From: a virus
Length of the DNA: 64,000 nucleotides
Reading direction: 5' to 3' (one strand)
IMG/VR virus record: IMGVR_UViG_3300045988_096785
Span: 41,968-105,967 of that record
Shown here: one piece after another, positions 3,835-64,000 of the stretch
Numbering within the stretch: position 1 is the stretch's first letter
Layout: each line of letters begins with the position of its first letter
The notes under the pieces: generated by a model
Database searches by the model: none
Seen by the model: only the letters and a program-made list of their open reading frames with translations
What the model was told of the DNA's origin: nothing
Made by a program: the position numbers and the translations under genes

Positions 3835-4415
3835 GTATGAGAAGGAGATACGAAGATGTTTCAGGTCTTGTTCAGTATCAGTTGAAGACCAATCAGCAGG
3901 GGAATATAGAGGTTTATGTTGATGACAGGTTTGTTGGAAACGTAAGTGAAGGAGTCTGTAATTGGAAGGATATTGAATACAAGAGTAAGGTTACTATATC
4001 TTTGAAAGGAGTCGAGGATAAGGCTAAAACTTCAAGTAAAAGAGTCGGTCCTTATTGTCACATTAATAGCATATTTGGAGGAAATGAATCTTATCATGCA
4101 GGTCCGGATAGTAATATAAAAAAGAGTCCGGTTACTACCTTTCTAATGTATTGCTATAAAAATGGGAATATTACGACTATCACCACTTATACTAAAAATT
4201 TATCTGGAACTCTTCAGATAGGTAAAACACAATTGACTATCAATTACAAACAAAATAAAAGTCAGTCTTTTTCCGGTGGTTCTGGAGATTATGTAACATC
4301 CGTATCTGATTTCCCTTTTGTTACTGGTCCAGGAAATGATAGTGTTGAGTTTGAAGGAGAGGGAAGATTGATAGTTGAGACAGAGGCTTCGCATTATGAA
4401 ATAGAAGTTTCTTGA
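3828..4415 (+). CDS. Hypothetical beta-rich protein (about 193 aa). The first ATG is at 3837; the track start at 3828 is GTG
   Basis: ORF directly follows and slightly overlaps the 1272-aa gene. Ser/Thr/Gly/Asn-rich composition typical of structural beta proteins. Confidence 0.5.
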   Translation: MLSMRRRYEDVSGLVQYQLKTNQQGNIEVYVDDRFVGNVSEGVCNWKDIEYKSKVTISLKGVEDKAKTSSKRVGPYCHINSIFGGNESYHAGPDSNIKKSPVTTFLMYCYKNGNITTITTYTKNLSGTLQIGKTQLTINYKQNKSQSFSGGSGDYVTSVSDFPFVTGPGNDSVEFEGEGRLIVETEASHYEIEVS

Positions 4416-4600
4416 CATACTCCCATCGCTAAAGCAAACGGGATTCTTGGATACAAACGCAAGAAACCCCGATATTACTATCGTTGGAATTACTCTTACT
4501 CTCCAATTCGGAAATGCCCTTCCGAAGTATATTACGGGCTGCAAGAATATCACGGTCGTTGATGGCGCCGCACGCCGGGCATACCCACGTGCGGTCGCGT
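4380..4600 (-). ncRNA. Putative omegaRNA (reRNA) scaffold overlapping the tnpB 3' end, with the guide extending past the right end (about 4400-4428)
   Basis: Established architecture of TnpB loci (scaffold from the tnpB 3' end plus the right end, guide from the flanking DNA). Not directly verifiable from sequence without a covariance model. Confidence 0.3.
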
Positions 4601-5675
4601 AACGACAGACCTTTATTAATGCAGCCACATTCACAAGTTTTGGAAGAAGGATACCATTTGTCAATCTTGTGTATCGTTACTCCATACTTTGAAGCAACAT
4701 ACGTAAGTTTGTCAATAAAAGAAGAATGACTGAGATCGGAAACTTTCTTTCCCCACAAACGTTTCATTCCTTCAATGTTTAGATCTTCAATAAAAATATA
4801 ATCATACTGTTTGCATAACTGGTGTGCTAATCCCCATTGAAAATCCGATCGAAGATCGTTTATTTTACGATACGTTTGTTGTAGTTCAAACAGTTTTCTT
4901 CTTCTATTATTGGATCCTTTCTTTGTATTAGAAAACCGTTTGTTTAGTTTTCTAATCTTGTTTTGATATTGTTTAAAGAATAATGGAGAATCGATTTTGC
5001 TACCATCGCTTTTAGTTAGATAAGTTTTCAGGCCAAAATCTAATCCGATAGATGCACCATCATGTGTCTTTCTGTAAGAGTTTGAATGATTATGATCTGT
5101 AACTATAATCAAACTAAAACGGGAACAGGTTTCTCTAACTATTCTAATTTGTTTAACATTACCTTCGTAGACTCTACTGTATGAAAATCTAAATCGTTTC
5201 TTTCCTTTGTTAATTGTTAGACAATTCCCATTCAGGGTAAACCCTCCTTGTTTGAAAACAAAAGAGTTAAAACAATCAGCTCTTTTGAACTTAGGAGGTC
5301 GTTTAGCCAACTTCTTAAAGAAACGATTATAAGATTCATCAAGACGTTCAAGTATTTCTTGTGTTGTTTGAGAATGAAGAAGATTTCTTTTAATTCTTTT
5401 GGTAAAATGTTTCTTCATTTTACCAATTGATATATATTTCCTAAACAGTTTGTAGTATCTACGTTGTAGAGCTAACGCATGATTCCATACAAAACAACAT
5501 TCACGAAGCATTTTGTCAAGATACTTCGTTTTCTTGGAATGGTATATGTTGTATTTGTATGAAATCATTTTTATCTGTAATTTTGATTTAAAATTAATCA
5601 AACCAATTCATCCACCTTCTAAAGTATGGTGGTTTTGTTGGTTAAATTATCATAATTTCTATTTTTATAGTATCT
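4416..5675 (-). mobile_element. IS200/IS605-family (IS1341-like, TnpB-only) insertion between two plus-strand genes
   Basis: A canonical tnpB ORF oriented antisense to flanking genes fills the whole 1.26 kb intergenic gap. A CCACC-N11-GGTGG hairpin at 5612-5640 sits on the putative left-end side. No tnpA (Y1 transposase) is seen. Confidence 0.6.
4429..5601 (-). CDS. tnpB: TnpB (OrfB) RNA-guided RuvC-like endonuclease, 390 aa
   Basis: RuvC-I motif IGLDFGLKTY. RuvC-II motif IFIEDLNIEGM. Zinc finger CECGC...CPACG. RuvC-III motif NDRDILAARNI. Confidence 0.9.
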   Translation of the reverse strand: MINFKSKLQIKMISYKYNIYHSKKTKYLDKMLRECCFVWNHALALQRRYYKLFRKYISIGKMKKHFTKRIKRNLLHSQTTQEILERLDESYNRFFKKLAKRPPKFKRADCFNSFVFKQGGFTLNGNCLTINKGKKRFRFSYSRVYEGNVKQIRIVRETCSRFSLIIVTDHNHSNSYRKTHDGASIGLDFGLKTYLTKSDGSKIDSPLFFKQYQNKIRKLNKRFSNTKKGSNNRRRKLFELQQTYRKINDLRSDFQWGLAHQLCKQYDYIFIEDLNIEGMKRLWGKKVSDLSHSSFIDKLTYVASKYGVTIHKIDKWYPSSKTCECGCINKGLSLRDRTWVCPACGAINDRDILAARNILRKGISELESKSNSNDSNIGVSCVCIQESRLL

Positions 5676-26884: not shown

Positions 26885-28305
26885 GCCTTTATCCTATTAT
26901 AATATTCGATAATCTTTTCTTTCCTATCTCCCGGTTTTACTGCCATATTCTCAGCCAAGAACCTAAAATACGACACCGGTATGTCCTTGAATCTAATTCC
27001 TTCATATTTTCCAAACCACATTATTATGCTGTCAAGATCGTCTTCTCTCCTACCATCTCCATTCACAGATTTAAGTGAGGCTGCCCGGCGAAGAATTTCG
27101 TCTTTGGTAATAATATCACCCATCCTTATATTGGACAGAAGTTGATTGCCGGCAAACATACACCAGCCCTTAGAAGGAAATTGTTCGATCGTCAAGTCTT
27201 CTATCCGACCAAAACGTCTCATGTTGTCGCAGCAATCAACTATCAGCGCCTCTTTCTTATCAGGATGGATGCGGACGGCGCGGCCTAATATTTGGTAATA
27301 CGTTGAATATGAGAACGTTGGTCGACCAAACATCACACAATCAAGTTCAGGAAAGTCAAATCCGGTAGCAAGCGTTGAATAATTAAAAACCACCTTCAAC
27401 TTACCTTCTTTGAAATCTGATATGATTTGCTCTCTTTTCTTTTTGGTTGTTAGCGATGTTACGACACCGGTTATGGCTCCCATTTTGGCATTCATAAACT
27501 CTGATATTCTATTACATGATTCGATAGAATCCATACAAACCAAAATGGCTTTACGCTCGTTCATAAGCTGAAGAAGACGCTTGTAGATAGAGTTGTTTAA
27601 GCCATTTCGTACGATGCTTTCTTTAATAGATTCGTTGGTATATTCGGCTCCGGTACTGTTTAGCATCAGAGCCGATTCATCAAATGACCATCGTTCGTAC
27701 TTAAGTGGACACCAAAAACCTTGAGAAGTTAGCTCTTGTATTTGTATTACATGAACTAACTTCTTGAAGAAGTTATGCTCGTCTTTTGTCAGCATATTAA
27801 GTTTGCTATAGTTTCCTTCCAGCATGGAACTGTAGGCTCTGAGGCGGCAGGGAGTGGCGGTGAAGCCCAGCACCTTCGCCTCGGGAAACTCGCTCATAAA
27901 CTCCATAAATTCAGAACCTTCTTCAGGAGAATATCCTGAATGACATTCGTCTATCAATAAGGTATCTATCCCTGTATCTTTCAACCTTGCTACGTCTTTC
28001 TTTATGCTTTTAAGTGTAGCATAAGTCATAGCCGATAATTCCTTTACGCCACATGAGGCAGAGTATATAGTAGGTTCGGAGCCAAACGATACAGCCTTAG
28101 CATAATTCTGCTCCAGAATTTCTTTTGATGGCTGCAATACTAACGTTGGTCTATTTATCTCATGTGCTATCTTGGATATCAGAAGGCTCTTACCCGCTCC
28201 GCATGGGGCTACTATTATGCCAGGCTTTTTAGATCTTCCTGTAAGAAACTTAAGCCCGGCATCTACTGCTTCTTTCTGGTAAGGTCTAAGTTCAAAGCCC
28301 ATCAC
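26881..28305 (-). CDS. SF2 DEAH-box DNA helicase (474 aa) with a C-terminal DUF3820-like tail
   Basis: Walker A APCGAGKS. Motif II LLIDECH. Motif III TATP. Motif VI QILGRAVR. C-terminal MWFGKYEGIRFKDIP...YFRFL. Confidence 0.8.
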   Translation of the reverse strand: MMGFELRPYQKEAVDAGLKFLTGRSKKPGIIVAPCGAGKSLLISKIAHEINRPTLVLQPSKEILEQNYAKAVSFGSEPTIYSASCGVKELSAMTYATLKSIKKDVARLKDTGIDTLLIDECHSGYSPEEGSEFMEFMSEFPEAKVLGFTATPCRLRAYSSMLEGNYSKLNMLTKDEHNFFKKLVHVIQIQELTSQGFWCPLKYERWSFDESALMLNSTGAEYTNESIKESIVRNGLNNSIYKRLLQLMNERKAILVCMDSIESCNRISEFMNAKMGAITGVVTSLTTKKKREQIISDFKEGKLKVVFNYSTLATGFDFPELDCVMFGRPTFSYSTYYQILGRAVRIHPDKKEALIVDCCDNMRRFGRIEDLTIEQFPSKGWCMFAGNQLLSNIRMGDIITKDEILRRAASLKSVNGDGRREDDLDSIIMWFGKYEGIRFKDIPVSYFRFLAENMAVKPGDRKEKIIEYYNRIKA

Positions 28306-29174: not shown

Positions 29175-30194
29175 TCATCGTTTTATCTTTTTAGACGGAT
29201 CCCAATCCGAAGAGAAAGGGCATTCGTTTTTGTTATGTAATCCAAAGTCACAATAATAACACAGTGCTGACGGGTAGGGTTGTTTGTTTTGCGGAACAGG
29301 CTGGCTTAGGGTGGCACGCCGCTTGCTATACCTGGCTCCTTCTGCTCCCTGGATGTACGCTTGAAATGATTTTACACTATTATCTTCAAAATCATACATT
29401 TTAGACAAAGTGTCATTTAGCATCTCTATAGATTTTGTTTTACGTTCCTCATCCACCTTAACCTTTTGGTACTGCCTGGTCCTGGTAAAGAAATAGATGT
29501 TCATATCTGGAAGAACTCCACCATATTTTCTATAGATGTAAAATGAATATATAGGATGCTGTAAATTCGTTTCCAACTTCTTAGAATCAAAAACCTTATT
29601 ACCTGATTTCCAATCTATGACATAATGGTGAACTACGTTCTTGCTTTTTATAGCCAGATGAAGGTCTACCGATCCTACTATGTACACATGAGTATGAATT
29701 ACTCCATTTATGTTAACAGGCTTAGGAAGACGGTACGGCAGCACAAAATCTTCTTCGACTCCAACTATAGCGCCGTGTCTGATAAGTTTCTCGCAGGGAT
29801 TAAGATCACTATCAGCTATCATAAACCTATTGCCGTCTTTTTTAAACAGATCCACAATCCAAGCAAGAAGCTCTCCAGATTGCTTCATGGCTATCATCAT
29901 ATTTTCCGGTGATTGCCAAGGTATGTCTTCTTGGTAAGCATAGTAACTTATAGCTTCCCCCAGGTCTTTGCCAGAAGGCTGTCTTCCGTTCTTGAAGAAG
30001 TATTCCAGTGTCTTATGAATAACTGTACCATAAGACGTAGCTTCTTGTTTTTCCGTAGACCTTTTGCCCTCCACGTAAGTTTTATACCATTTCATTGGAC
30101 AGGTAAGAAACGTGTCTATCTGGGAATAAGATATGGCAAGACGTTTCACACCATTAAACTCCTTATATAGCAAATGCGTTTCCGGGACCATCAT
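29175..30194 (-). CDS. PD-(D/E)XK nuclease, Cas4/RecB-like with an Fe-S Cys cluster (339 aa)
   Basis: N-terminal Cys (LTCPMKW) and C-terminal C-x2-C-x8-C (LCYYCDFGLHNKNEC). VDLH and VIDWKSG match nuclease motifs II/III. QHPIYSFY matches the QxxxY motif. Confidence 0.6.
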   Translation of the reverse strand: MMVPETHLLYKEFNGVKRLAISYSQIDTFLTCPMKWYKTYVEGKRSTEKQEATSYGTVIHKTLEYFFKNGRQPSGKDLGEAISYYAYQEDIPWQSPENMMIAMKQSGELLAWIVDLFKKDGNRFMIADSDLNPCEKLIRHGAIVGVEEDFVLPYRLPKPVNINGVIHTHVYIVGSVDLHLAIKSKNVVHHYVIDWKSGNKVFDSKKLETNLQHPIYSFYIYRKYGGVLPDMNIYFFTRTRQYQKVKVDEERKTKSIEMLNDTLSKMYDFEDNSVKSFQAYIQGAEGARYSKRRATLSQPVPQNKQPYPSALCYYCDFGLHNKNECPFSSDWDPSKKIKR

Positions 30195-30538: not shown

Positions 30539-31067
30539 ATCTCATATTCTATTAAATATATTTAAAGCTATTCATATGTTTTAATACATCCCCTCGGAGA
30601 CCTTCCGGTCTCCTTGGTAGATGTAAATCCCGTTAGGGATAAGTCAGGATTTCTCCTGTAAGTACCCATCGCCAATGTTATAAGAGGTTTTATATAATGG
30701 CAACACTGTTTCGTCAAATACACTACTCCTGTTTAATCACCATCCTTAGAGCAAGAAACTTGGATAAACATTCCTTGGTAACTATTTATTCTCAAATAAC
30801 GTAGCCTCTGTTTCAAGGCTTAGGCTAATAACCCGATCTCTGAAAGAGATGTATTAAACTTTTATAATAGAATTATATTGGGTTAATACTATTTGGGGTT
30901 ATAACACCGATCATAATGCTTGGTCAGTTCTTCTGGTTCTAAATCTTGTCCAAAATCCATGTTAAAAATATCGTAATTAGTAAAGCACTGTTCCTGCCGG
31001 CAGGAAATCTATGAATGCTGCTTTTATTTCTTCAATTAGGCCCAAGTGTAACCTTGGGCCATTGTAT
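30539..31067. other. 530-bp structured noncoding region. Contains perfect hairpins GGAGACCttccGGTCTCC (30596-30613) and GGCCCAAGtgtaacCTTGGGCC (31039-31060), and the 16-bp palindrome TTCCTGCCGGCAGGAA (30991-31006)
   Basis: No ORF of 60 aa or more. Several perfect inverted repeats. A T-tract follows the 31039-31060 hairpin on the plus strand. Confidence 0.5.
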
Positions 31068-31283
31068 TTATTTTTTGTCATCTCCTTTTAATTTCTTTAA
31101 AGTATCTGCAATCGGAAGCTGATCAATGACTCCCAATGCCGGAGCGACGGTCTTAACAACATTGTTAAGGAAATTACCGGTACTGTTCTGACCGCCGTCA
31201 AATACCGTGATATTTCCGAGGTTAATGTGCTCAAATGCCTTAACCTGTTCTCCGGCAATTTCTTTCCACTGATTAACCATCAC
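31068..31283 (-). CDS. 71-aa ORF resembling a flotillin C-terminal tail, in a different frame from the upstream flotillin gene (possible split or frameshift)
   Basis: GTG/ATG start overlaps the flotillin stop. ITVFDGGQNSTGNF...APALGVIDQLP resembles Gly-rich flotillin C-termini. Confidence 0.35.
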   Translation of the reverse strand: MMVNQWKEIAGEQVKAFEHINLGNITVFDGGQNSTGNFLNNVVKTVAPALGVIDQLPIADTLKKLKGDDKK

Positions 31284-32764
31284 TGGATGGCGATCTGAGG
31301 ATTGGATTCTGCTGCTTCCACCATAGCCTTAAATCCGTCGGCTTCTGCCATTAACGACTTTTTCTTACCTTCGGCTTCTGCCTCCAGTTTCATCTGAATA
31401 GCCTTTGCCTCTGCCTCAGCTTTTGCCAAATGTGCTGCCGCCTCAGCCTCAGCCCGGCGTTTGATCTTCTCTGCCTCAGCATCAGCTTGTAATATAGCCT
31501 CTTCCTTCTGGGTTTCAGCCGGCACAATCTTTTCAGCCTTAAGCGCAGCCTGAACTTTCTTAGCCTTAGCTTCTTCCACTTCTTTGTCGGCAAGCTCTTT
31601 TGCTGTTTTTACAGCCGCTTCCGATTTAACTCTCTCTTCTCCGGCTTTCTTTTCTGATTGAGCTTTGATAACCTGTAGCTCTGATTCTGATACAGCAACC
31701 TCTTTCTGAGCATTGTTGTAGCCTACAGAAGCATTTTTCTCAGCCTCAGCTTTCTTAATCTGAGCTTCAGAGTCTTGTATTGCTATAGCTGCTTGTTTAT
31801 CAGCTTCAGCTTTATTCTTCCCGACTTCTTCCATTCTTTCGGCTTCAGCTTTGTTTACTTCAAGTTCTGCCTTAGATCTTGCGATCGCTGATTCCTTATC
31901 AGCCAAAGTCTTTGCAATAACCGCAGCCCTATCTCTATCGGCTTGAGCTACACCGATCTGTTTTTCTTTATCGGTTAAAGCCAAAGCTACTTCTTTTTCT
32001 TTCTTTGTTTCAGCTACTACCGTTTCCTTTTCTTTTTCAGTATAGGCAATTTGAATCTCTTGCTCTTTTTGGGTATTAGCTACAGCCGTTTCTTTTTCCT
32101 TTTGCTGTACAGCAATCTTAATAGCACCCAGTTTCTCCTGTTCTTCGATATTAGCCTGTGCTTCGTTCAGAGCCCTACTTTCAGCCTCCTTACCAAGGTT
32201 CATAATATAACCGGCTTCGTCTCTGATGTCACTGATGTTGATGTTCAGGAGGTAAAGACCTAACTTATTAAGCTCGTTATCAATGTTCTTTCTTGCCTTA
32301 TCCAAAAACTCATCCCTGTCAGAATTAAGTTTTTCGATTGTCATTTCAGCAATAATCAAACGCATCTGACCGTAAACGATGTCCGTAATAAGATTTTCAG
32401 TAGATTCGGTATCCATCCCCAAAAGTCTTTCTGCCGCATTTTGCATGATTTCGGGATTTGTACTGATAGCTACTGTAATGGTCGTAGGTACATCTACTCT
32501 AATATTCTGAGATGACAAAGCACCGGTAAGCTTGCAATCTATTTGCATAGGCTCCATAGACAAAATATCATAGCTTTGAATAATAGGCAAGACGAATGCC
32601 GCTCCACCATGATATAATTTCGCCGATTTCTTTTCCCCACCTGTCTTACCATAAACGACCAAGACTTGATTAGGCTTACATCTACGATACCTTGATAAGA
32701 CTCCGATGATTGTCAAAATAATCACTACAGCTAAAATAGCTGACACGTACATGATTGTTGTCAT
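31280..32764 (-). CDS. Flotillin-like SPFH/band-7 protein (494 aa)
   Basis: N-terminal transmembrane helix. SPFH core (VLVVYGKTGG...AAFVLPIIQSYDILSMEP). Long Glu/Ala/Lys-rich coiled-coil. Confidence 0.8.
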   Translation of the reverse strand: MTTIMYVSAILAVVIILTIIGVLSRYRRCKPNQVLVVYGKTGGEKKSAKLYHGGAAFVLPIIQSYDILSMEPMQIDCKLTGALSSQNIRVDVPTTITVAISTNPEIMQNAAERLLGMDTESTENLITDIVYGQMRLIIAEMTIEKLNSDRDEFLDKARKNIDNELNKLGLYLLNINISDIRDEAGYIMNLGKEAESRALNEAQANIEEQEKLGAIKIAVQQKEKETAVANTQKEQEIQIAYTEKEKETVVAETKKEKEVALALTDKEKQIGVAQADRDRAAVIAKTLADKESAIARSKAELEVNKAEAERMEEVGKNKAEADKQAAIAIQDSEAQIKKAEAEKNASVGYNNAQKEVAVSESELQVIKAQSEKKAGEERVKSEAAVKTAKELADKEVEEAKAKKVQAALKAEKIVPAETQKEEAILQADAEAEKIKRRAEAEAAAHLAKAEAEAKAIQMKLEAEAEGKKKSLMAEADGFKAMVEAAESNPQIAIQ

Positions 32765-56812: not shown

Positions 56813-57192
56813 TTTACCACCCTTTCTATGTGTTTAATTAATACTACTGCTATTCCCTTACCGGTTTTTATCGCACATTCCGACCCTTTTATCCATTCTA
56901 CACACCCTACATACTTTTCCGTAGCATGAAATCCGGGATTGTATTTTCCAGATGTACTGAACTCTACCGTATCCCCTACCCTCAGATCATCAAAAGCAAT
57001 AGACCATGTGGTCCAAATTCTGTCATGTCTCCCAGGCTGAATGGCCCCGATTACGCCTTTTTTACGACCGTTTTTTATTGCCCTTAGTATTATCTTCCTA
57101 TCACCTTCGATAAGGCTGCAAAAGCGCCCGTAAAAGGTCAAATCAACCTGTTTTCCTCCTATTTCTTCTCTTATTTTTGTTATTCTGTTCAT
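56809..57192 (-). CDS. Hypothetical protein (127 aa)
   Basis: ORF. Confidence 0.45.
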   Translation of the reverse strand: MNRITKIREEIGGKQVDLTFYGRFCSLIEGDRKIILRAIKNGRKKGVIGAIQPGRHDRIWTTWSIAFDDLRVGDTVEFSTSGKYNPGFHATEKYVGCVEWIKGSECAIKTGKGIAVVLIKHIERVVK

Positions 57193-57416
57193 TTTCTGAT
57201 TTTGTTTTATTTTTTTCTTTGTTTTTTCTATCTTCTATAGAAGATGATAATAACATTATCTTTTCTATGTTACTTTTTGACTGTAAAAAAGAATCGCATT
57301 TCATTACTACTACCACCTTCTTAAGTTCCCCATTATCGTATAGCGATACACGCATCATGTTTTGCGCCTCGTCCACTATCAGACCTGGAGTAGTCTTAGC
57401 CATTTTACGTAGCTTG

Positions 57417-57701
57417 TTATACTCCGGTCTTTCCATTTCCTCTGTTTATTACTCTATAGTATTTATCCTTATCCCCTTCTTTTAACTTCTCCAGATAGAA
57501 AATTCCATCATGTAAATGAGACAAACAAAATCTGTATCCGTATTTCTGTACTCTTCTTACATGATCCCGCAGTCTTATCTCTTCACTTTTGTCTTGTACT
57601 TTGATCTTAATACTGTCTCCTTCTTTGATTGTGTATAAAATAGTTTGAATCTCTTCTTTTTTCATCTTATAAAATATTTTAACGGCAGCACCTATACTCA
57701 C
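57417..57701 (-). CDS. Hypothetical protein (94 aa)
   Basis: ORF. Confidence 0.4.
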   Translation of the reverse strand: MSIGAAVKIFYKMKKEEIQTILYTIKEGDSIKIKVQDKSEEIRLRDHVRRVQKYGYRFCLSHLHDGIFYLEKLKEGDKDKYYRVINRGNGKTGV

Positions 57702-57728
57702 GCACCACTACTGCCTTATGTTTAACAA

Positions 57729-58538
57729 TTAAATACTTAACTCTTCAATGGTCAAGCCTTTTTCTTTTGCCCACTTTAGCATTGCGCATAATTCTGTTTC
57801 TGACTTATATTTCGGATCACGCCACGCCCATCCGAATTTATCCAGGACATGATGATATAATTCGTCGGCCTTTGCCGTGTAAATGTCTTTGAATAAATGC
57901 TCCGAACCTTCCGGTATAAGCATCTCTGTTGTTGCAAAATCGGAATACGACAAACATCCGTAAGCATATTCTGTTATTTCACTCCATGCTTCTCCGGCTT
58001 TAAATCCAAATTCTTTTACAAAAGCCAAAGTTAGATACATATTTAATAATATTGTTACATCATATTCCGAATCCGACTTTCTTTCTATTATTTCTTTTTC
58101 AAATTCCTTTAAATCTTCAGGCCCTAAAAAGATGTATCCTGATACCGACCGGTAATTAGCCTCCGCATACTTCTTGCATTTATCATCATTGACAATCTTA
58201 CCAATGTTAGATAACATCTTTTGCCTCCATTCATCACAAAACTCTACCCTTACATCCATCCAATCAGTACCATAATTGTGATCTTTTGGATGTCCGACCG
58301 ATATTACCTTTATGTTATTCACACCATATTCATAAAGGCGTTCGCCCACCTTATTCGCCCATTCCTGTACAAAAGGAATAAACTTATTGCAATAAGAATC
58401 AAAATCAAAATCTAATTCCTCCTCATATTCTGGCATCTCTTCATAATCTTGTTCAAAGAAATATCGAGGATCTGCTATTGTTTCATAGAAACTTACGTTA
58501 ATGAAACAAAACTCGTTGGTTGTCGTTTTTAATATCAT
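57729..58538 (-). CDS. Hypothetical protein (269 aa)
   Basis: ORF. Confidence 0.5.
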   Translation of the reverse strand: MILKTTTNEFCFINVSFYETIADPRYFFEQDYEEMPEYEEELDFDFDSYCNKFIPFVQEWANKVGERLYEYGVNNIKVISVGHPKDHNYGTDWMDVRVEFCDEWRQKMLSNIGKIVNDDKCKKYAEANYRSVSGYIFLGPEDLKEFEKEIIERKSDSEYDVTILLNMYLTLAFVKEFGFKAGEAWSEITEYAYGCLSYSDFATTEMLIPEGSEHLFKDIYTAKADELYHHVLDKFGWAWRDPKYKSETELCAMLKWAKEKGLTIEELSI

Positions 58539-58789
58539 AGCTTTTTGTATTTACGTACATTTTTCTTGCCATAGAATCTACACATGGCACGAATCTGACT
58601 ATAAAATACTTTTGTCCTCCTGGCCTCAAAGTATTTAAACATTTCTTCATTCTTTGTTTCCCACACGTAGTCCGTTTGAGAACTCATGTGATTTTTGTCC
58701 TTGCGTGAATAATGGTAATATGATACCACAACACGTTTCTCACCATTCTTTACAGGTACGATATTCACATCTATGTTATTATCTGTCAT
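58535..58789 (-). CDS. Hypothetical protein (84 aa)
   Basis: ORF with ATGA overlap. Confidence 0.4.
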   Translation of the reverse strand: MTDNNIDVNIVPVKNGEKRVVVSYYHYSRKDKNHMSSQTDYVWETKNEEMFKYFEARRTKVFYSQIRAMCRFYGKKNVRKYKKL

Positions 58790-58908
58790 ATTATTATTGT
58801 TTTATATATTATACAAATACAAAGAGCGCATACCTTCACAGGCCGGCGCTCTTTTCAATAAAAATGAAAAAACTAACATTACATAAACATATTGTTTTCT
58901 GCTCTTTA

Positions 58909-59142
58909 TTACAATACTTTTGTCCCACAATTGTTATATCGTCCGTACTCTTTTTTCGTATCATTCAAGATTTCAAACACCATCTTCTTATGATCTTTGT
59001 TTGGTAACTTGTCTTTAACAGCCGATATCACGCTCGCTATAGACGTAAAGCCTGAATCTGTTATTGAACACAACAACAAACCTCTGTCGTCGTCTGTGCT
59101 TATCGCTGACGCCTTTATAATATCATTCCTATATATTCTCAT
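58909..59142 (-). CDS. Hypothetical protein (77 aa)
   Basis: ORF. Confidence 0.35.
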   Translation of the reverse strand: MRIYRNDIIKASAISTDDDRGLLLCSITDSGFTSIASVISAVKDKLPNKDHKKMVFEILNDTKKEYGRYNNCGTKVL

Positions 59143-59320
59143 AATCTTTCGTTTTATTGTCTACAAACTTATCTATATCGTCTCTTATTCTTTTTAGCAC
59201 TCCGGCTATAATTTCCGGCATCTCTCCTTCGGTACGGTTCAGAGTTTCTATCACCCCATCAATCCTACCAATTTGACGCCATAAGAAATTGGCGTCTTTC
59301 GCATTAAATTCCCTCATCAT
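59129..59320 (-). CDS. Hypothetical protein (63 aa)
   Basis: ORF. Confidence 0.35.
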   Translation of the reverse strand: MMREFNAKDANFLWRQIGRIDGVIETLNRTEGEMPEIIAGVLKRIRDDIDKFVDNKTKDYENI

Positions 59321-59552
59321 GTCTTATTTTACAGTAAACAACTTGCTTTTTTAAGCACCAGTCTTGCGATTCTGAGAGTGAACACCGTTCGGAGTTGTTA
59401 AAAAATATACAATCTTTGCAGAACATAAGAGGATCTTCGTCGTCACCAACTACTTTGACATCATACTCTATACCATACAATTTTAATCTAAATACATCTC
59501 CTGTTTTTTTAGAAGACAAATCCATGTTCGGACCGAATGTTATTACTTCCAT
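59304..59552 (-). CDS. Small Cys-rich protein, paralog family member (82 aa)
   Basis: DLS..G..F..K..G...V.AKVV...C..CIFF.....C.LS.S...C pattern shared with 60739..61008 and 34237..34446. Confidence 0.5.
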   Translation of the reverse strand: MEVITFGPNMDLSSKKTGDVFRLKLYGIEYDVKVVGDDEDPLMFCKDCIFFNNSERCSLSESQDWCLKKQVVYCKIRHDEGI

Positions 59553-59572
59553 ATAATTATGTTTTATTGTTT

Positions 59573-59668
59573 GTGAGATGCCCAGAATCGAACCAGGACC
59601 GGCACATACATACCGGCACGCCGCGCCATCCCTCTATGATACACAAATAGACATGCCTATTCTCACGA
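59573..59668 (-). tRNA. Possible tRNA or tRNA-like element (T-arm GGTTCGATTCT plus acceptor-like CATCTCAC). Non-canonical by manual folding
   Basis: The plus strand shows CCCAGAATCGAACCAGG, the reverse complement of a T-arm. An intergenic GTGAGA...TCTCAC pairing spans about 94 nt. Confidence 0.3.
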
Positions 59669-59725
59669 ACCGACATGCCAAAACCCAAAACTTAATTTGA
59701 TGAATAAAATAGATTAACAAAAATA

Positions 59726-60040
59726 CTATTCTAATTCTTTTATAATATCTTTCACAATATTCAGCCTTACCTCCTTCGTTTCTGGACTAAGACAACCAAA
59801 CCACCCATAAAACGTTCTTGTTTCCTCTGGTTCTGTGGCCATACTTATCTTCTCTTCCAATTCCGGGAAATATATTCTCACCATTTCGTCTGAACGAAAC
59901 TCATAGATATTTTTATGTGTTTTGAAATACATAAACACTACATTTCTTAACGCAACACATATGTATTCCCCATCCTCTAACCTATCAATCATCTCATATA
60001 CCTTTTTCCATATGAATAATCGCTCTTCTTTTGTAAACAT
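59726..60040 (-). CDS. Hypothetical protein (104 aa)
   Basis: ORF. Confidence 0.45.
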   Translation of the reverse strand: MFTKEERLFIWKKVYEMIDRLEDGEYICVALRNVVFMYFKTHKNIYEFRSDEMVRIYFPELEEKISMATEPEETRTFYGWFGCLSPETKEVRLNIVKDIIKELE

Positions 60041-60054
60041 ATCCTTCTTTATTT

Positions 60055-60471
60055 TTATGGTATTATTTGACTGTATGCAGACTTTTCCATGTACACAATA
60101 TTATGCTCCTGTCCAAATATCTTCTTTGCCGCCTCTTTCTTTATCGCACAATATCTCCCTGTACGATACGGATTCTTTTGATCTGATCCATCCTCGACTT
60201 CGATAATAAAACAGCCTCCGTCATCTATTATCTTTTTGCAATTGTCACATACTCCGCCCGTGCATATATGATGCGGTGCCTGCCCTTTGATATTATTCCC
60301 TAATAAAGCAATGCCCATCTCTTCGCCACATATCATGCAGACTTCTATAGACGGATTCAATCCGTGTTCTGGATGTAATGTAACACCATCTTTCATTTTC
60401 TTTCCTCCTTTGTTTTTAATGTTGTGTGAGATCGCCGGAATCGAACCGACTTGCTGCACCATGAATCCCAT
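60055..60471 (-). CDS. Zinc-ribbon hypothetical protein (the real start is probably the internal Met MKDGVTL)
   Basis: CMICG...CDNC motifs. Confidence 0.4.
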   Translation of the reverse strand: MGFMVQQVGSIPAISHNIKNKGGKKMKDGVTLHPEHGLNPSIEVCMICGEEMGIALLGNNIKGQAPHHICTGGVCDNCKKIIDDGGCFIIEVEDGSDQKNPYRTGRYCAIKKEAAKKIFGQEHNIVYMEKSAYSQIIP

Positions 60472-60497
60472 AAATCAAATGCTCCGATCTTCGCAGA
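60428..60497 (-). tRNA. Possible tRNA or tRNA-like element (T-arm GTCGG-TTCGATT-CCGGC plus acceptor-like GATCTCAC)
   Basis: The plus strand shows GCCGGAATCGAACCGAC. The T-arm is good, but a full cloverleaf was not found by hand. Confidence 0.3.
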
Positions 60498-60738
60498 TGG
60501 GAGCATTCTGTCTAAAGCATAAGAAAATTAATGAAGAAAATTTTTCTCACTTACGCCATAGCATCTAAAATAGCTATCAACACTATTTCTATGACAAGCA
60601 TAATAGAGAATGTCTTAAATATCTTTTTCATATCTCCTCCTTTTTTATCTGTTCTTTTCACGTTCCACAATAAACTGTTCCGGCTCTGCTCCGAACTACG
60701 TTCCACCTACAACCGCAGGCCTTAGCCCAAGGCGCCGC

Positions 60739-61008
60739 CTACTCCCCCTCTATGGCAGCCTGTTCGTACCTACAAATCCAATCTCCATCTACACAACTAT
60801 CACTACGCGATAATAAACATTTATCCTTATAACAATCATAAAAAATACACCTATCACAACTGTAATCCTTAACGTCTACACAGCTAACTACCTTAGCATA
60901 TACTATACCATCACTGCCTTCTATTCCTTTCACCCCAAAAATAGAACCTTCTACTTCTTTACTCAAATCTAAATCGGGTGCAAAATCATATACGTTCATA
61001 CCATCCAT
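60739..61008 (-). CDS. Small Cys-rich protein, paralog family member (89 aa)
   Basis: SCVDV...CDRCIFYDCYKDKC pattern. TGTTTAACAATTAAAAT sits immediately upstream of the ATG. Confidence 0.5.
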   Translation of the reverse strand: MDGMNVYDFAPDLDLSKEVEGSIFGVKGIEGSDGIVYAKVVSCVDVKDYSCDRCIFYDCYKDKCLLSRSDSCVDGDWICRYEQAAIEGE

Positions 61009-61069
61009 ATTTTAATTGTTAAACATTCCGATTACCACTAATCTATAGAATATAGTTTTCAACTCTCAA

Positions 61070-61186
61070 CCTATTGAATTTTGTAGAATAAACTCACATT
61101 TTGCTGTTTTAAAGCACTGTAATCCTTAATTTTGTGGGAAAACCCTACATAATGTTGTTTTAAAACGCTTATCTATTGAATTTTGT
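61070..61186. repeat. Direct repeat CTATTGAATTTTGT x2 (61070-61083 and 61173-61186)
   Basis: Exact 14-mer duplicated 103 bp apart in a noncoding region. Confidence 0.6.
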
Positions 61187-61252
61187 TGGTAGGGAGTGCC
61201 CTCCCCCTCCCTCTCTCCAACTCCCGCTAATCCTCCGGCTTTCCGCATAGAA

Positions 61253-61386
61253 CCCACGCCCTACCGCCTCACTACCGGCATACGGAGAGCGCTACAAGCT
61301 TATACTCTGGCATGGAGTATGGGGGATTTGGAGATAATATCATTCCATAGAGAGAATAGAGAGCCTTCAGCCCACGCCCTACCGCC
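61253..61386. repeat. Direct repeat CCCACGCCCTACCGCCT x2 (61253-61269 and 61370-61386) in a C-rich (minus-strand G-rich) island
   Basis: Exact 17-mer duplicated 117 bp apart. The minus strand at 61195-61215 carries GGGAGGGGGAGGG G-runs. Confidence 0.6.
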
Positions 61387-61720
61387 TGCTCCTCCTATCA
61401 AGATAGATATTTAAACCTATAATCAAAGCCAACAAAGAAAAGCAAAAGACCATTACAATATTATACTGATCCGGTCCGTACTCCAACATAGAGCGAATAC
61501 CAACCGACAGAAAATAAAGATCAGCTACTAATAAAAACCACCACATAGAATAAAAAAAATACAATAAGTATGTCCAAAAATACGGGGATTATAAAACCTA
61601 ACTAATTGATAATCAAGCATACCTCATTTTTAAGAAAAATACAATAAGCCTAATTTTCAATCCATAGAGACGAAAAAGGCGGCATCCGACACCCTATTTT
61701 GGGTCAGAAAACCGCCTCAA

Positions 61721-61817
61721 GTTTCGTTTTAGACCAATTTTAACGACATGATATAGACAAAATACCGGCATTATATCCGAATGGCCTTATTTTTGTTTCG
61801 TTTTAGACCAATTTTGT
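61721..61817. repeat. Direct repeat GTTTCGTTTTAGACCAATTTT x2 (61721-61741 and 61797-61817)
   Basis: Exact 21-mer duplicated 76 bp apart in a noncoding region. Confidence 0.65.
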
Positions 61818-61916
61818 CCACGTCCGCCGTTCACTCTCAGAATACCTACCCGTAAATAGAAAGAGTAGGATACGAAAATAGGGCTACTCCGATATTCGGA
61901 ACAACCCTATTCCTGT

Positions 61917-62123
61917 TTAAATACTGTTTATGTTTTCTTTCACGTATGTTCGTGATGTATGGACTTTGCGTTTGCATTTGTCCTTTCCCGTATCGGCATG
62001 ATACGCTTCTTTAAGATCACGATACAACATAAATTCCCGATACGCTCTTTTCCGCTTTTCTTTAGCTTCTTTCCTGGACAGACCGCGAACGTCTACCATG
62101 TGAGATTTAAATTTCCTTTCCAT
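61917..62123 (-). CDS. Small basic hypothetical protein (68 aa)
   Basis: ORF. Lys/Arg-rich. Confidence 0.35.
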   Translation of the reverse strand: MERKFKSHMVDVRGLSRKEAKEKRKRAYREFMLYRDLKEAYHADTGKDKCKRKVHTSRTYVKENINSI

Positions 62124-62145
62124 TTTCTTTATGCTTTAATTATGA

Positions 62146-62367
62146 TTAACCCCAGCGGTTAAGTGCTTCAATATAGAAACCTTCCGCCTCTTTGTACTCA
62201 CTTTCGCTCAATGTTTCCACCGTCTCGATATAGTTACGCAATGTTATTTTTACGCAACTGTTTTTAGATTTATTGAACGCTTCAGTTAAAGCGTTGATCA
62301 TTGCTTTCTTTCCCATGTTATTATATTGTTTATAATTTAGAGGTTGCTCCGGAATCGAACCGGACAC
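62146..62367 (-). CDS. Small hypothetical protein (73 aa)
   Basis: ORF. Confidence 0.35.
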   Translation of the reverse strand: MSGSIPEQPLNYKQYNNMGKKAMINALTEAFNKSKNSCVKITLRNYIETVETLSESEYKEAEGFYIEALNRWG

Positions 62368-62407
62368 GCATTCCTATCCTATAGAGATTTTATGCTACAA
62401 CCAACAG
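62341..62407 (-). tRNA. Possible tRNA or tRNA-like element (T-arm TCCGG-TTCGATT-CCGGA plus acceptor-like GCAACCT)
   Basis: The plus strand shows CTCCGGAATCGAACCGGA. A 6 of 7 acceptor pairing to TGGTTGT exists, but the element is only about 63 nt. Confidence 0.3.
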
Positions 62408-62899
62408 CCCGTAATTAGTACGTAGTTCTTGCGTACAGGCCCGTACTATGTTTTTATTATATTTTCCGTCTGCTACACTATTTCGCCACACATAACGGCA
62501 TAGTGTCCTTGCGTTTTGATACGGCACGTCCCTACATGGTAGGCTACATGTTTATACCCTGTAATTTAATCTACAGCCTTGTCCTATTTTACGTGTAGGC
62601 AAGTAAGACACGTTTCGGTCTGGAGATAAACCGCGTACAACGGTATGTTTTCCAAACTGTACTAACATACCTAACATAACTACATTTATCCAATGTAATA
62701 CATGCAGTAATACCAGCCCTTTAATTGCCAACGGCAAGGGCAAAGGTATATCTATCTCCAATATGTAAAATAACTCTCTGTTTTGTCAGCTTCAGTCTAA
62801 AGCATACGCGGGACGTGCACCCACTGACAACGGCGTACAAGCGCGTTTAACGGTACGCGTCAAACCTTTGGAGAGCTTAACGGCGCTCTCCGTGCCTTG
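62408..62899. other. 490-bp GC-richer noncoding region with recurring GTACG/CGTAC and AACGG motifs
   Basis: No convincing ORF (62552..62761 is likely spurious). AACGG occurs 6 or more times. Several CGTAC-containing short palindromes. Confidence 0.4.
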
Positions 62900-63445
62900 T
62901 TACTGCTGGTTGCTTTCATGTGCGAGGTATTCACTTACACACTTTGCCACAGTGCGAATAGAATAAGATTTGATCTTAACAGCCACATAAGTAGCTTTAT
63001 ACTCGTCGTTTTCTTTTATCAACCATTTAGTGCTTTTTTTGGTCTCCAATGATTCGGCAGTAGTAAAACCAAATGATTTATATTCGCTACCGTAAACCAC
63101 ATTCTCAGCGCACCAATCAGCCGTTTTAGCCTCAACGCCTTTCTCTTTGTCTGCATTGGTATCCTTATACACTTTAGAGTATAAAGCAAATTTAACAAAT
63201 GTATCGTCAACTTTCGGTAACATTTGGCTACACACAGCTACCAGGCGTTTTTTATCCTTGGCGAGGGCTGCAACCTTTACGGCGTATTCTGCCGGTATTT
63301 CCAAGGCCTTGCAAATAGACTTAAGATCAGCTCCATTAGCAAATAAAGCGTTGTATAACTTTACGGCACCTACCAAATTTGCAGCGTTTTCTTTGATAAC
63401 AGCATTCTGTAGTTTGTTTACATTTTTTTTCGTAATCATATCCAA
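62900..63445 (-). CDS. Hypothetical protein, first gene of the leftward module (the real ATG is probably at 63439; the track start is TTG)
   Basis: ORF preceded by TGTTTAACAATTAAAAT about 10 nt upstream. Confidence 0.5.
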   Translation of the reverse strand: MDMITKKNVNKLQNAVIKENAANLVGAVKLYNALFANGADLKSICKALEIPAEYAVKVAALAKDKKRLVAVCSQMLPKVDDTFVKFALYSKVYKDTNADKEKGVEAKTADWCAENVVYGSEYKSFGFTTAESLETKKSTKWLIKENDEYKATYVAVKIKSYSIRTVAKCVSEYLAHESNQQ

Positions 63446-63664
63446 TATATTTTAATTGTTAAACAAATGATATTCAATTTAATGACCCACAACGCAGGCA
63501 ATTACAGATACATATATAGTTCACCCAACGGGTACACTATATAGATTCACTATGTTAACTCGTAATCTCTCTCGATCACGACGCAAATATACGACATTTG
63601 TCAATACTACAAATATATATACTATCTTTTTTTTGTTAATTTGTATTAATTTCGATTCTATTAT

Positions 63665-63813
63665 CTGATTATCAGCAATTTGCAAAACACACAAGAGCAG
63701 TACTATACGCGTACATTAATATGTAGGATATATGTTTATTTAAGTGGCTTATAATCAATATGTTATAATAATACATTGATTATCAATAATTTAAATAAAC
63801 TGTTGATAATCAG
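63665..63813. promoter_or_regulatory. Three TGATnATCA-type palindromes (CTGATTATCAG 63665-63675, TTGATTATCAA 63776-63786, TTGATAATCAG 63803-63813). Candidate operators or initiator sites
   Basis: Three related 11-bp palindromes within 150 bp, upstream of the whole minus-strand module. Confidence 0.45.
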
Positions 63814-63833
63814 CGAGTTTATATGTTTGAGGT

Positions 63834-63888
63834 GAAAACGCGTTTCCGGTTTTCCAGCGAAGGGGGTGTGGGGGAGAAAACGCGTTTC
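63834..63888. repeat. Two copies of the 12-bp perfect palindrome GAAACGCGTTTC (63834-63846 and 63876-63888) flanking G-runs
   Basis: GAAAACGCGTTTC x2 with GGGGGTGTGGGGGAG between them and GGGGGCGGGAGG after. Confidence 0.55.
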
Positions 63889-63947
63889 GGGGGCGGGAGG
63901 TTCGTGATAGGTACCCCCTCTCTCCCATCACATAAACATTTTTTTTT

Positions 63948-63980
63948 ACATCCATCATCACATCCATCATCACATAAACC
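63948..63980. repeat. Tandem repeat (CATCCATCATCA) x2
   Basis: ACATCCATCATCACATCCATCATCACATAAACC. Confidence 0.5.
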
Positions 63981-64000
63981 TCTTTCTCATATCTCTCCCA

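Follow-up and report, generated by a model that had tools for sequence, protein, structure and literature searches.

Comparative sequence analysis of a 64-kb stretch of phage DNA (hereafter the window) shows that a widespread gut phage carries the gene of a new structured RNA whose 3' end resembles a tRNA. The RNA is encoded on the minus strand at 62341-62867, inside a segment (61010-62899) that an initial annotation, made from the letters alone, had described as GC-rich noncoding islands with three exact direct-repeat pairs and had proposed as an origin of replication, a packaging site or a regulatory RNA locus. The window comes from an epsilon crAss-like phage of the human gut with a genome of ~150 kb. 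In GenBank it has a single relative, OR575929, whose deposited name is 'csAssE-Sib' and which its authors call crAssE-Sib; the two are ~90-98% identical, and crAssE-Sib is placed in the epsilon crAss-like group, in the proposed genus Epsilonunovirus (PMC11054128). A literature search for a large RNA or a tRNA-like RNA in crAss-like phages found no description of either.

We compared the region across two lineages. Lineage 1 comprises ~200 IMG/VR loci of the same species-level group as the window, with 88-100% protein identity and 78-97% DNA identity in the region. Lineage 2 was reached through the 181-aa protein encoded upstream of the RNA, whose homologs share 26-44% identity; one of these, P0131, led to contigs L281 and L282, and a pattern scan of metagenomes added L310, L311, L313 and L315. 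The distant homologs P0126, P0127 and P0132 led to no further lineage in IMG/VR. The lineage-2 contigs probably belong to a second proposed genus. In all of them a homolog of the 181-aa gene is followed by ~640 nt of noncoding DNA and then directly by a homolog of a 68-aa gene, and the noncoding stretch has core stretches in common with the window RNA. The RNA consists of the following parts:

62404-62867, minus strand: large structured RNA domain of ~460 nt, with multiple helices, some of them long-range
62578-62603, minus strand: pseudoknot, in which the hairpin loop 62603-62598 pairs with 62583-62578
62341-62403, minus strand: tRNA-like element (TLE) of 63 nt at the RNA 3' end

The whole RNA is thus ~525 nt long, the ~460-nt domain being covalently attached to the TLE. 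Its 5' boundary can be placed only approximately: 62861 is the start of the first supported hairpin, and 62867-62863 (AGGUU) serves only as an alternative partner of the 3' end.

The fold was derived from an alignment (A1) of 111 distinct minus-strand homologs of 62330-62875, on which RNAalifold predicts 162 pairs in 27 helices. Across the pair cells of A1, 98.3% are canonical, compared with 32-42% when the 3' partners are slid by 1-3 columns. Both sides have changed in 28 pairs, and the cells with changes on both sides number 304, against 96±9 in shuffled alignments (reached in 0/500). G-U pairs make up 11.9% of the cells, and the opposite strand would pair only 87% of them; the frequent and invariant G-U pairs identify the minus strand as the RNA strand. 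The pseudoknot varies in a paired manner as well (UA63/CG46, GC93/AU14/GU4, UA99/GC11, UA92/UG19, CG111), with 22-49% pairing in slid controls. Covariance models of the 3' domain (R1) and the mid domain (R2), built from lineage 1 only, recover lineage 2 with 40-45 bits (E 1e-12 to 1e-14) and 63-67 bits (E about 1e-12), respectively. Between the lineages, both sides differ in 23 of the 44 pairs of R1 (slid controls 1-5) and in 11 of the 27 pairs of R2 (slid controls 1-3). At the level of sequence comparison, these results establish the fold, the transcribed strand and the conservation of the mid and 3' domains in two lineages, and we regard it as nearly certain that 62341-62867 encodes a conserved structured RNA.

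The RNA accounts for motifs that had been noticed as DNA repeats. The initial annotation reported an enrichment of AACGG and CGTAC in 62408-62899. AACGG is indeed strongly enriched (6 copies against 0.56 expected, a number reached in 0/500 shuffles), and the excess of CGTAC is marginal (4 against 1.37 expected; 21/500 shuffles). Both motifs turn out to be parts of RNA helices and loops. In the RNA, AACGG reads CCGUU, most copies lie in or beside hairpin loops, and five such loop motifs are conserved. Of the functions suggested at the outset, that of an RNA locus therefore holds for 62408-62899, on the minus strand and with covariation support.

No known family describes this RNA. Rfam gave no match to it at gathering thresholds or at E<=10, and cmscan of 57000-64000 (E<=10) and of L281 and L282 (E<=1), including the models for ROOL (RF03087), GOLLD (RF01998), HEARO and OLE, returned chance-level matches only. 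A scan of genome contigs found nothing beyond L307 (NZ_DXLG01000138.1, 3943 nt; 212 bits to R1), a 3.9-kb contig that carries the RNA gene and was binned in the 'Veillonella sp.' metagenome-assembled genome HRGM_Genome_0346. L307 is almost certainly a binning contaminant and gives no evidence of a host.

The 3' end of the RNA has the shape of half a tRNA. Specifically, an acceptor stem of 7 positions (62403-62397 with 62347-62341) is followed by a single central hairpin with a 5-nt loop (62395-62368) where the D and anticodon arms would be, and by a T arm with a 5-bp stem (62364-62360 with 62352-62348) and the loop UUCGAUU; C62340 occupies the discriminator position. The T loop and its closing G-C pair are near-invariant. 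The acceptor stem reads UGGUUGU/GCAACCU in lineage 1 and GGCAUAC/GUAUGCU in lineage 2, fully re-coded in the same register, and independent minimum-energy folds of the two lineages give the same three-way shape. The element thus combines an acceptor stem of 6-7 bp, a T stem of 5 bp, a UUCRANY T loop and a G-C closure, and both stems covary across the lineages. RNAalifold had instead proposed a long-range helix closing the 5' and 3' ends (AGGUU at 62867-62863 with AACCU at 62345-62341). In lineage 1, two variants of the 3' strand, G to A and U to A, form U-A pairs in the local acceptor stem and break this long-range pairing, and a U to C variant creates a C-G pair in the local stem. We demoted the long-range helix because lineage 2 and the variants within lineage 1 fit the local pairing only, and we consider the local tRNA-like fold very probable on these comparisons.

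The TLE is neither a tRNA nor a tmRNA. ARAGORN called 0 tRNA or tmRNA genes in the window, and at the TLE of L281 and L282 it called none either; the Rfam tRNA model gave no match at E<=10. A true tRNA or tmRNA at any of the three GGTTCGATTCC sites was rejected on the negatives of ARAGORN and Rfam. The TLE has no D arm and no anticodon arm. A tmRNA deserved attention, since the large RNA is pseudoknotted and its 3' TLE combines a T arm and canonical T loop with an acceptor-like stem, and the sole Rfam trace is an 11-bit match of the T loop to tmRNA. However, ARAGORN and the Rfam models are negative for tmRNA, the acceptor stem is local and does not join the 5' and 3' ends, its third pair is G-C where a tmRNA would have G3:U70, and the RNA has neither an encoded CCA nor a tag frame.

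Two further minus-strand elements with a T loop lie downstream, at 60427-60490 and 59574-59633. Each has a GGUUCGAUUC(C/U) T arm and a possible acceptor stem of 5-7 bp. Like the element at 62341, both stop 21-30 nt short of a start codon (60396 and 59552, respectively). They show one-sided changes only and are called tRNA by no search; they may be of the same kind as the element at 62341-62403.

The large RNA would be made as the tail of a leftward operon, and host RNase P and RNase Z would cut at the tRNA-like elements, possibly with involvement of the CCA-adding enzyme. Cutting at the TLE would free a stable large RNA, and the mRNA downstream would then begin 21-30 nt ahead of its start codon. 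We put such processing forward tentatively, at slightly below even odds.

Known RNAs offer partial parallels. ROOL and GOLLD RNAs occur close to tRNA islands, and in some cases GOLLD is covalently joined to tRNAs (PMC12286853). The window RNA resembles them in being phage-encoded, ~0.5 kb long, multi-helix, pseudoknotted, noncoding and linked to a tRNA-type structure, and in lineage 2 a true tRNA island (Gln, Asn, Cys, ±Met; 326-715 in L313 and 291-823 in L315) lies on the same strand, 6.5-8.5 kb upstream of the RNA. It differs in matching neither Rfam model even at E<=10, in coming from Crassvirales of gut Bacteroidales, and in that its linked element is a 63-nt mimic and no real tRNA. By analogy, it could be counted as a phage 'ornate' RNA of the ROOL/GOLLD kind that is a member of neither family. 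A second parallel is the eukaryotic MALAT1/mascRNA, a long RNA with a tRNA mimic at its 3' end where it is processed. As in MALAT1 and viral tRNA-like structures, the long RNA of the window leads directly into a tRNA-like element, and the acceptor/T-arm half of this element could serve to recruit RNase P and RNase Z. The known systems are found in eukaryotes or in RNA viruses, whereas here three elements would punctuate an operon of a DNA phage.

Other features lie close to the RNA gene. A 7-bp GC-rich hairpin, GGAGAGC-GCCGTTAA-GCTCTCC (62869-62896), stands directly past the stop codon of the 181-aa gene; it shows indel polymorphism, and some strains, crAssE-Sib included, have an A-run instead. 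An NrnA-like phosphodiesterase and a polynucleotide kinase/3'-phosphatase are encoded within ~3 kb of the RNA gene in relatives, as in crAssE-Sib (record 2615-4409, just past the right end of the window). These RNA-repair enzymes and the tRNA island of lineage 2 may bear on the role of the RNA.

About 500 bp from the RNA gene, a second conserved module consists of short direct repeats and an invariant 15-mer:

61721-61741, plus strand: box copy 1, core GTTTCGTTTTAGACCAAT
61795-61815, plus strand: box copy 2, core GTTTCGTTTTAGACCAAT
61829-61843, plus strand: invariant 15-mer GTTCACT/CTCAGAAT, 14 bp beyond box 2, the slash marking 61835/61836

The boxes contain the 21-mer pair of the initial annotation (GTTTCGTTTTAGACCAATTTT, copies at 61721 and 61795), whose copies are 74 nt apart from start to start and not 76 bp as had been given. 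An 18-nt core is present in two copies exactly 74 nt apart in 190/190 loci containing it, and lineage 2 has a box identical at 16/18 positions in four copies, spaced by 75/147/74-75 nt. Neither covariation nor RNA structure runs through the boxes. A spacing held constant at 74 bp, or seven turns of the helix, suggests that a protein binds the DNA here. Despite variable flanks, the 15-mer is the same in 185/191 loci. Window 60414-64000 aligns with OR575929 at ~89.5% identity, and the alignment passes without a break from the end of that record to its start. Window 61836 is therefore the counterpart of record position 1, which places the record start at the slash in the 15-mer and 20 bp from box 2. 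The termini and start of the pseudo-circular crAssE-Sib assembly were set with PhageTerm (p = 1.5e-22; PMC11054128).

Taking this conservation together with the authors' statement on PhageTerm, we read the module as a possible site of terminase recognition and cleavage. The small terminase, or another protein that recognises DNA ends, would bind the boxes as phased sites, and the DNA would be cut at the 15-mer. The boxes are a candidate terminase signal, an assignment that falls somewhat short of an even chance, and for the 21-mer pair the packaging site proposed at the outset gains independent support. In headful phages (SPP1 with pacL/pacR, P22, P1), pac sites are intergenic short direct repeats phased on one face of the DNA beside the first terminase cut. 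The module of the window is likewise intergenic, with phased short direct repeats beside a presumed DNA end; it differs in that the terminase genes are ~17 kb off in the relative.

Two observations concern motifs related to this module. An exact inverted copy of the 15-mer (ATTCTGAGAGTGAAC) lies at 59369-59383, inside an 82-aa gene (59304-59552); it is kept in 22/31 loci, and ~0.01 exact 15-nt inverted matches would be expected within 5 kb. A second repeated motif, TCTCTATGGAWTGA (minus strand), occurs at 61340-61353 and 61657-61670, 317 nt apart, and lineage 2 has a similar motif, TTCTTTATGGAATTG, at 4379-4396 and 4656-4673 of L282, 277 nt apart. The two may represent another conserved box family of the same control region.

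The remaining repeats belong to three further features:

61010-61195, no strand assigned: hypervariable tandem array of three ~51-nt units starting at 61043, 61094 and 61145
61199-61212, minus strand: G-tract GGGAGGGGGAGGG(CAC), abutting the array; the plus strand reads CCCTCCCCCTCCC
61190-61380, no strand assigned: GC-rich (56%) noncoding island, holding the 17-mer copies at 61253-61269 and 61371-61387

Each array unit contains a 10-bp palindrome, GTTTTAAAAC, or a variant of it, together with TTGAATTTTGT, and a TAnnTTTG-like motif on the plus strand. The 14-mer pair (CTATTGAATTTTGT, copies at 61071 and 61173) consists of parts of units 1 and 3. Across 144 loci, the array measures 136-573 nt, has 1-10 units and exists in 79 versions, some of which are runs of a 21-nt sub-unit. 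Among 80 loci fetched with the neighbouring gene, 25 end inside the array, and several circular assemblies are broken there. The G-tract varies in length among close relatives. In lineage 2, a near-identical motif, GGGGAGGGGAGGCACC, occupies the same junction with a 41-nt array of its own amid unrelated flanks, so that G-tract and array appear to form a conserved module. The G-run had been put forward as a G-quadruplex candidate. It is real and conserved across the lineages, but GGGAGGGGGAGGG has only three G-tracts and its lineage-2 counterpart GGGGAGGGGAGG two to three, fewer than the canonical intramolecular quadruplex of at least four tracts of at least three Gs; tract count leaves room for a two-tetrad or intermolecular form.

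The exact 17-mer pair (CCCACGCCCTACCGCCT, copies at 61253 and 61371, 118 nt from start to start) is not conserved. Copy 2 is conserved among relatives, and copy 1 differs at 4-5 positions in most of them; because of this divergence, we interpret the exact pair as a lineage-specific duplication or conversion, which would be a recent event in a GC-rich spacer. The island around it shows no codon periodicity, 1-nt indel polymorphism and little covariation on either strand. A search for structured RNA on either strand of 61186-61930 yielded local hairpins only, with 0-4 covarying pairs.

The three exact repeat pairs of the initial annotation are confirmed and exceed chance: in dinucleotide-preserving shuffles of 61010-62899, an exact repeat of at least 14 nt arose in 8/1000, and one of 17 or 21 nt in 0/1000. 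In the 64-kb window, the 17-mer and 21-mer have no extra copy except a 17-mer match with 3 mismatches at 27842-27858. Comparison with relatives separates the pairs, since the number and spacing of the 21-mers are kept in 190/190 loci, the 14-mers are units of an array of hypervariable copy number, and the exact 17-mer pair is not conserved; a single iteron system made of all three is thus not supported. The description as GC-rich applies to 61190-61400 only (56%), the window as a whole having 38%, the RNA stretch 43% and 61010-62899 40%.

The region also contains small genes and hairpins:

62149-62316, minus strand: 56-aa open reading frame (ORF), a variable cassette starting 24 nt past the TLE
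61920-62123, minus strand: gene of a 68-aa basic protein, conserved in both lineages
61845-61913, minus strand: two tandem hairpins (~61913-61875 and ~61870-61846) just past the 68-aa gene, predicted by RNAalifold on 100 sequences
61675-61718, no strand assigned: long GC-clamped hairpin flanked by an A-run and a T-run, with one compensatory pair
61382-61546, minus strand: gene of a 55-aa protein with two hydrophobic segments (membrane-like)

Strong third-codon-position variation among relatives identifies the 55-aa and 68-aa ORFs as real genes, with diversities by codon position of 8.85/0.57/3.33 and 9.65/1.01/2.42, respectively. The statement that only tiny ORFs intervene therefore understated the coding content, while the plus-strand ORF 61196-61414, already dismissed as an artefact, is indeed noncoding, with no codon periodicity and 1-nt indel polymorphism. 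Six-frame translation of 60380-62960 with stop types gave no long ORF hidden by TAG or TGA recoding. Some relatives have a strongly diverged 56-aa ORF or another sequence in its place, and lineage 2 lacks it. A homolog of the 68-aa protein, MKSFKSHMVDVRGLSRKEAKEKRK, is encoded in L281 and L282; the protein has no Pfam or PHROG match, and for the eight small proteins encoded nearby neither database provided a usable annotation. The tandem hairpins, which show stem-repairing changes in crAssE-Sib, look like terminators closing the leftward operon before the genome end, and in the same predictions the hairpin at 61675-61718 looks like a bidirectional terminator.

Read along the minus strand, the order is thus the 181-aa gene, the optional hairpin, the large RNA, the tRNA mimic, the variable 56-aa cassette and the 68-aa gene; then the two terminator-like hairpins, the 15-mer at the presumed genome end, box 2, box 1 and the bidirectional terminator-like hairpin; and finally the 55-aa membrane-protein gene, the GC island, the G-tract, the tandem array and an 89-aa gene. 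We interpret 61010-62899 as a composite, mostly noncoding control region beside the physical genome end, in which four separate things, the RNA, the boxes, the array and the 17-mer pair, lie together, and we give this interpretation a probability of about 0.6. Several points weigh against it. The lineage-1 sequences are all 78-97% identical and mosaic, so many of the compensatory cells go back to a small number of events that recombination has spread. Because alignments A5 and A7 were fitted to the structures of the models, they somewhat favour these structures, yet the lineage-2 sequences were found by score and their re-coded stems are obvious. In the TLE, acceptor pair 1-72 is mostly a U·U mismatch, and no CCA is encoded. 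Transcription of the RNA, its ends and its processing we infer throughout. The equation of record position 1 with the PhageTerm peak rests on the authors' statement, which gives no packaging class (PMC11054128), and of the ~200 IMG/VR contigs none ends at 61835/61836. The boxes could equally bind a replication initiator or a repressor, and a role of the array units as promoters or operators is a guess, as TAnnTTTG is not enriched in the window.

What the RNA does can be read in more than one way. In the most far-reaching scenario, the ~460-nt RNA with its tRNA mimic would define a new class of phage 'ornate' RNA: three mimics would mark the sites at which host RNase P and RNase Z cut polycistronic transcripts, much as tRNAs do in mitochondria, and the freed RNA would either self-assemble like ROOL and GOLLD or titrate a host factor through its five CCGUU loops. 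Such a factor might be a tRNA-targeting defence nuclease or a tRNA-processing enzyme, and a polynucleotide kinase/phosphatase of the tRNA-repair type is encoded a few kb off in relatives. We consider this scenario speculative and rather unlikely in its entirety. Alternatively, 62341-62867 might act in cis as a 3'UTR/5'UTR (untranslated region) element of the operon, for example as a stabiliser or processing platform, or by controlling translation of the small genes downstream, with the elements before 60396 and 59552 belonging to the same system. The shared distance of 21-30 nt between the three T-loop elements and the next start codons agrees with this, as does the failure to find a separate promoter or terminator for the RNA. 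However, ~460 nt of pseudoknotted, deeply conserved structure far exceeds the needs of known processing signals, and lineage 2 keeps the RNA though its downstream gene differs, which makes a purely cis-acting element unlikely.

For the DNA signals, three other explanations compete with a terminase site. If the boxes, with or without the array, were iterons of a replication origin bound by a phage initiator, the PhageTerm peak would be unrelated or an artefact. Direct boxes in the same orientation at multiples of a helical turn, a copy number that differs between the lineages (2 versus 4), AT-rich adjoining sequence, a palindrome-bearing tandem array and a DnaB-like helicase encoded in the window would all suit an origin. 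But the replication genes lie ~25 kb away with no initiator gene adjacent, the cumulative GC skew has no switch here, and the sole datum of an experimental type puts a DNA end 20 bp from box 2. We regard an origin as a less probable but live alternative. The boxes and array units might instead be operators or promoters of early-gene control, with a phage or host DNA-binding protein looping the DNA between the boxes to control leftward transcription from the genome end. The boxes have terminator-like hairpins on one side and the next block of genes on the other; upstream of the 55-aa gene is a -7 box of the Bacteroides type, TATTTTTG (minus strand, ~61582); the array units carry TAATTTTG or GAATTTTG on the plus strand; and many small downstream genes have no assigned function. 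Such control seems improbable, however, as TAnnTTTG is not above chance in the window, no candidate repressor is encoded beside the boxes, the 68-aa protein has no recognised DNA-binding domain, and the invariant 15-mer at the record start is left unexplained. Finally, a direct terminal repeat of ~2.86 kb (~61140-64000), with the repeats as its boundary signals, was suggested by at least 20 IMG/VR contigs ending at ~61040-61200 and at least 18 at ~63940-64100, and by a separate 2.75-2.84-kb inter-array contig in thousands of Logan assemblies. Both hot spots are hypervariable arrays beside G/C homopolymer-like tracts. Moreover, five near-complete contigs (106545, 108509, 125255, 116230 and 105159) have both ends in the first array, as circular assemblies broken there, and no contig carries the segment twice; on these two grounds we reject a terminal repeat, to which we leave hardly any probability. 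A terminase signal beside the genome end thus remains our preferred, if tentative, reading of the boxes.

The second of these hot spots lies at the right end of the window. A GC-rich island (59% GC) at 63830-64000 and beyond (seen in L007, L027 and L031) contains the palindrome GAAAACGCGTTTC twice, 42 nt apart, and is followed by a second tandem array at ~63925-64070 with ~29-nt units (CATCACATAAAC.TCTTTC...), where contigs end and similarity between strains is lost. Just before the ATG, the genes with starts at 61008 and 63445 have 30-nt leaders that are 83% identical to each other (TATTTTAATTGTTAAACA on the plus strand; 60996-61025 and 63436-63465). This leader has no Shine-Dalgarno sequence; neighbouring genes (e.g. 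60396 and 60631) have a strong AGGAGG.

Elsewhere in the window, a full-length match to HEARO RNA (RF02033; 95.2 bits, E = 3.4e-18) lies at 30658-30902 on the minus strand. HEARO is the RNA partner of IscB/HNH elements. Nearby ORFs encode an SPFH/Band-7 protein (31280-32764) and a PD-(D/E)XK nuclease (29175-30194), with no obvious IscB among those scanned. A gene of the TnpB/IS605 OrfB type (Pfam OrfB_IS605 and Cas12f1-like TNB) occupies 4411-5660 (ORF 4429-5601, minus strand). Related contigs carry ~90% identical copies of this element at different sites, for example between window positions 58805 and 58808 in L066, which indicates that it is an active mobile element in the phage population. 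An apparent junction of the window start with the window end was rejected as an artefact of this element, which occupies different sites in relatives.

In the human gut, epsilon crAss-like phages count among the commoner viruses, and thousands of public sequencing runs contain the 2.8-kb segment that bears the RNA. Assemblies of these genomes break at one fixed place, for which the hypervariable array provides the explanation; the array might also be used as a strain marker. The box pair and the 15-mer amount to a defined candidate for the packaging signal of a phage group in which DNA ends have hardly been characterised. Few bacterial and phage RNAs longer than 400 nt have conserved pseudoknotted folds, and every one found so far (RNase P, tmRNA, OLE, ROOL, GOLLD, HEARO) has opened a line of research. 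The RNA described here has clear support from covariation and carries its own tRNA mimic. As it lies ~500 bp from where the genome presumably ends, it offers a concrete, testable object in phages that are hard to culture.

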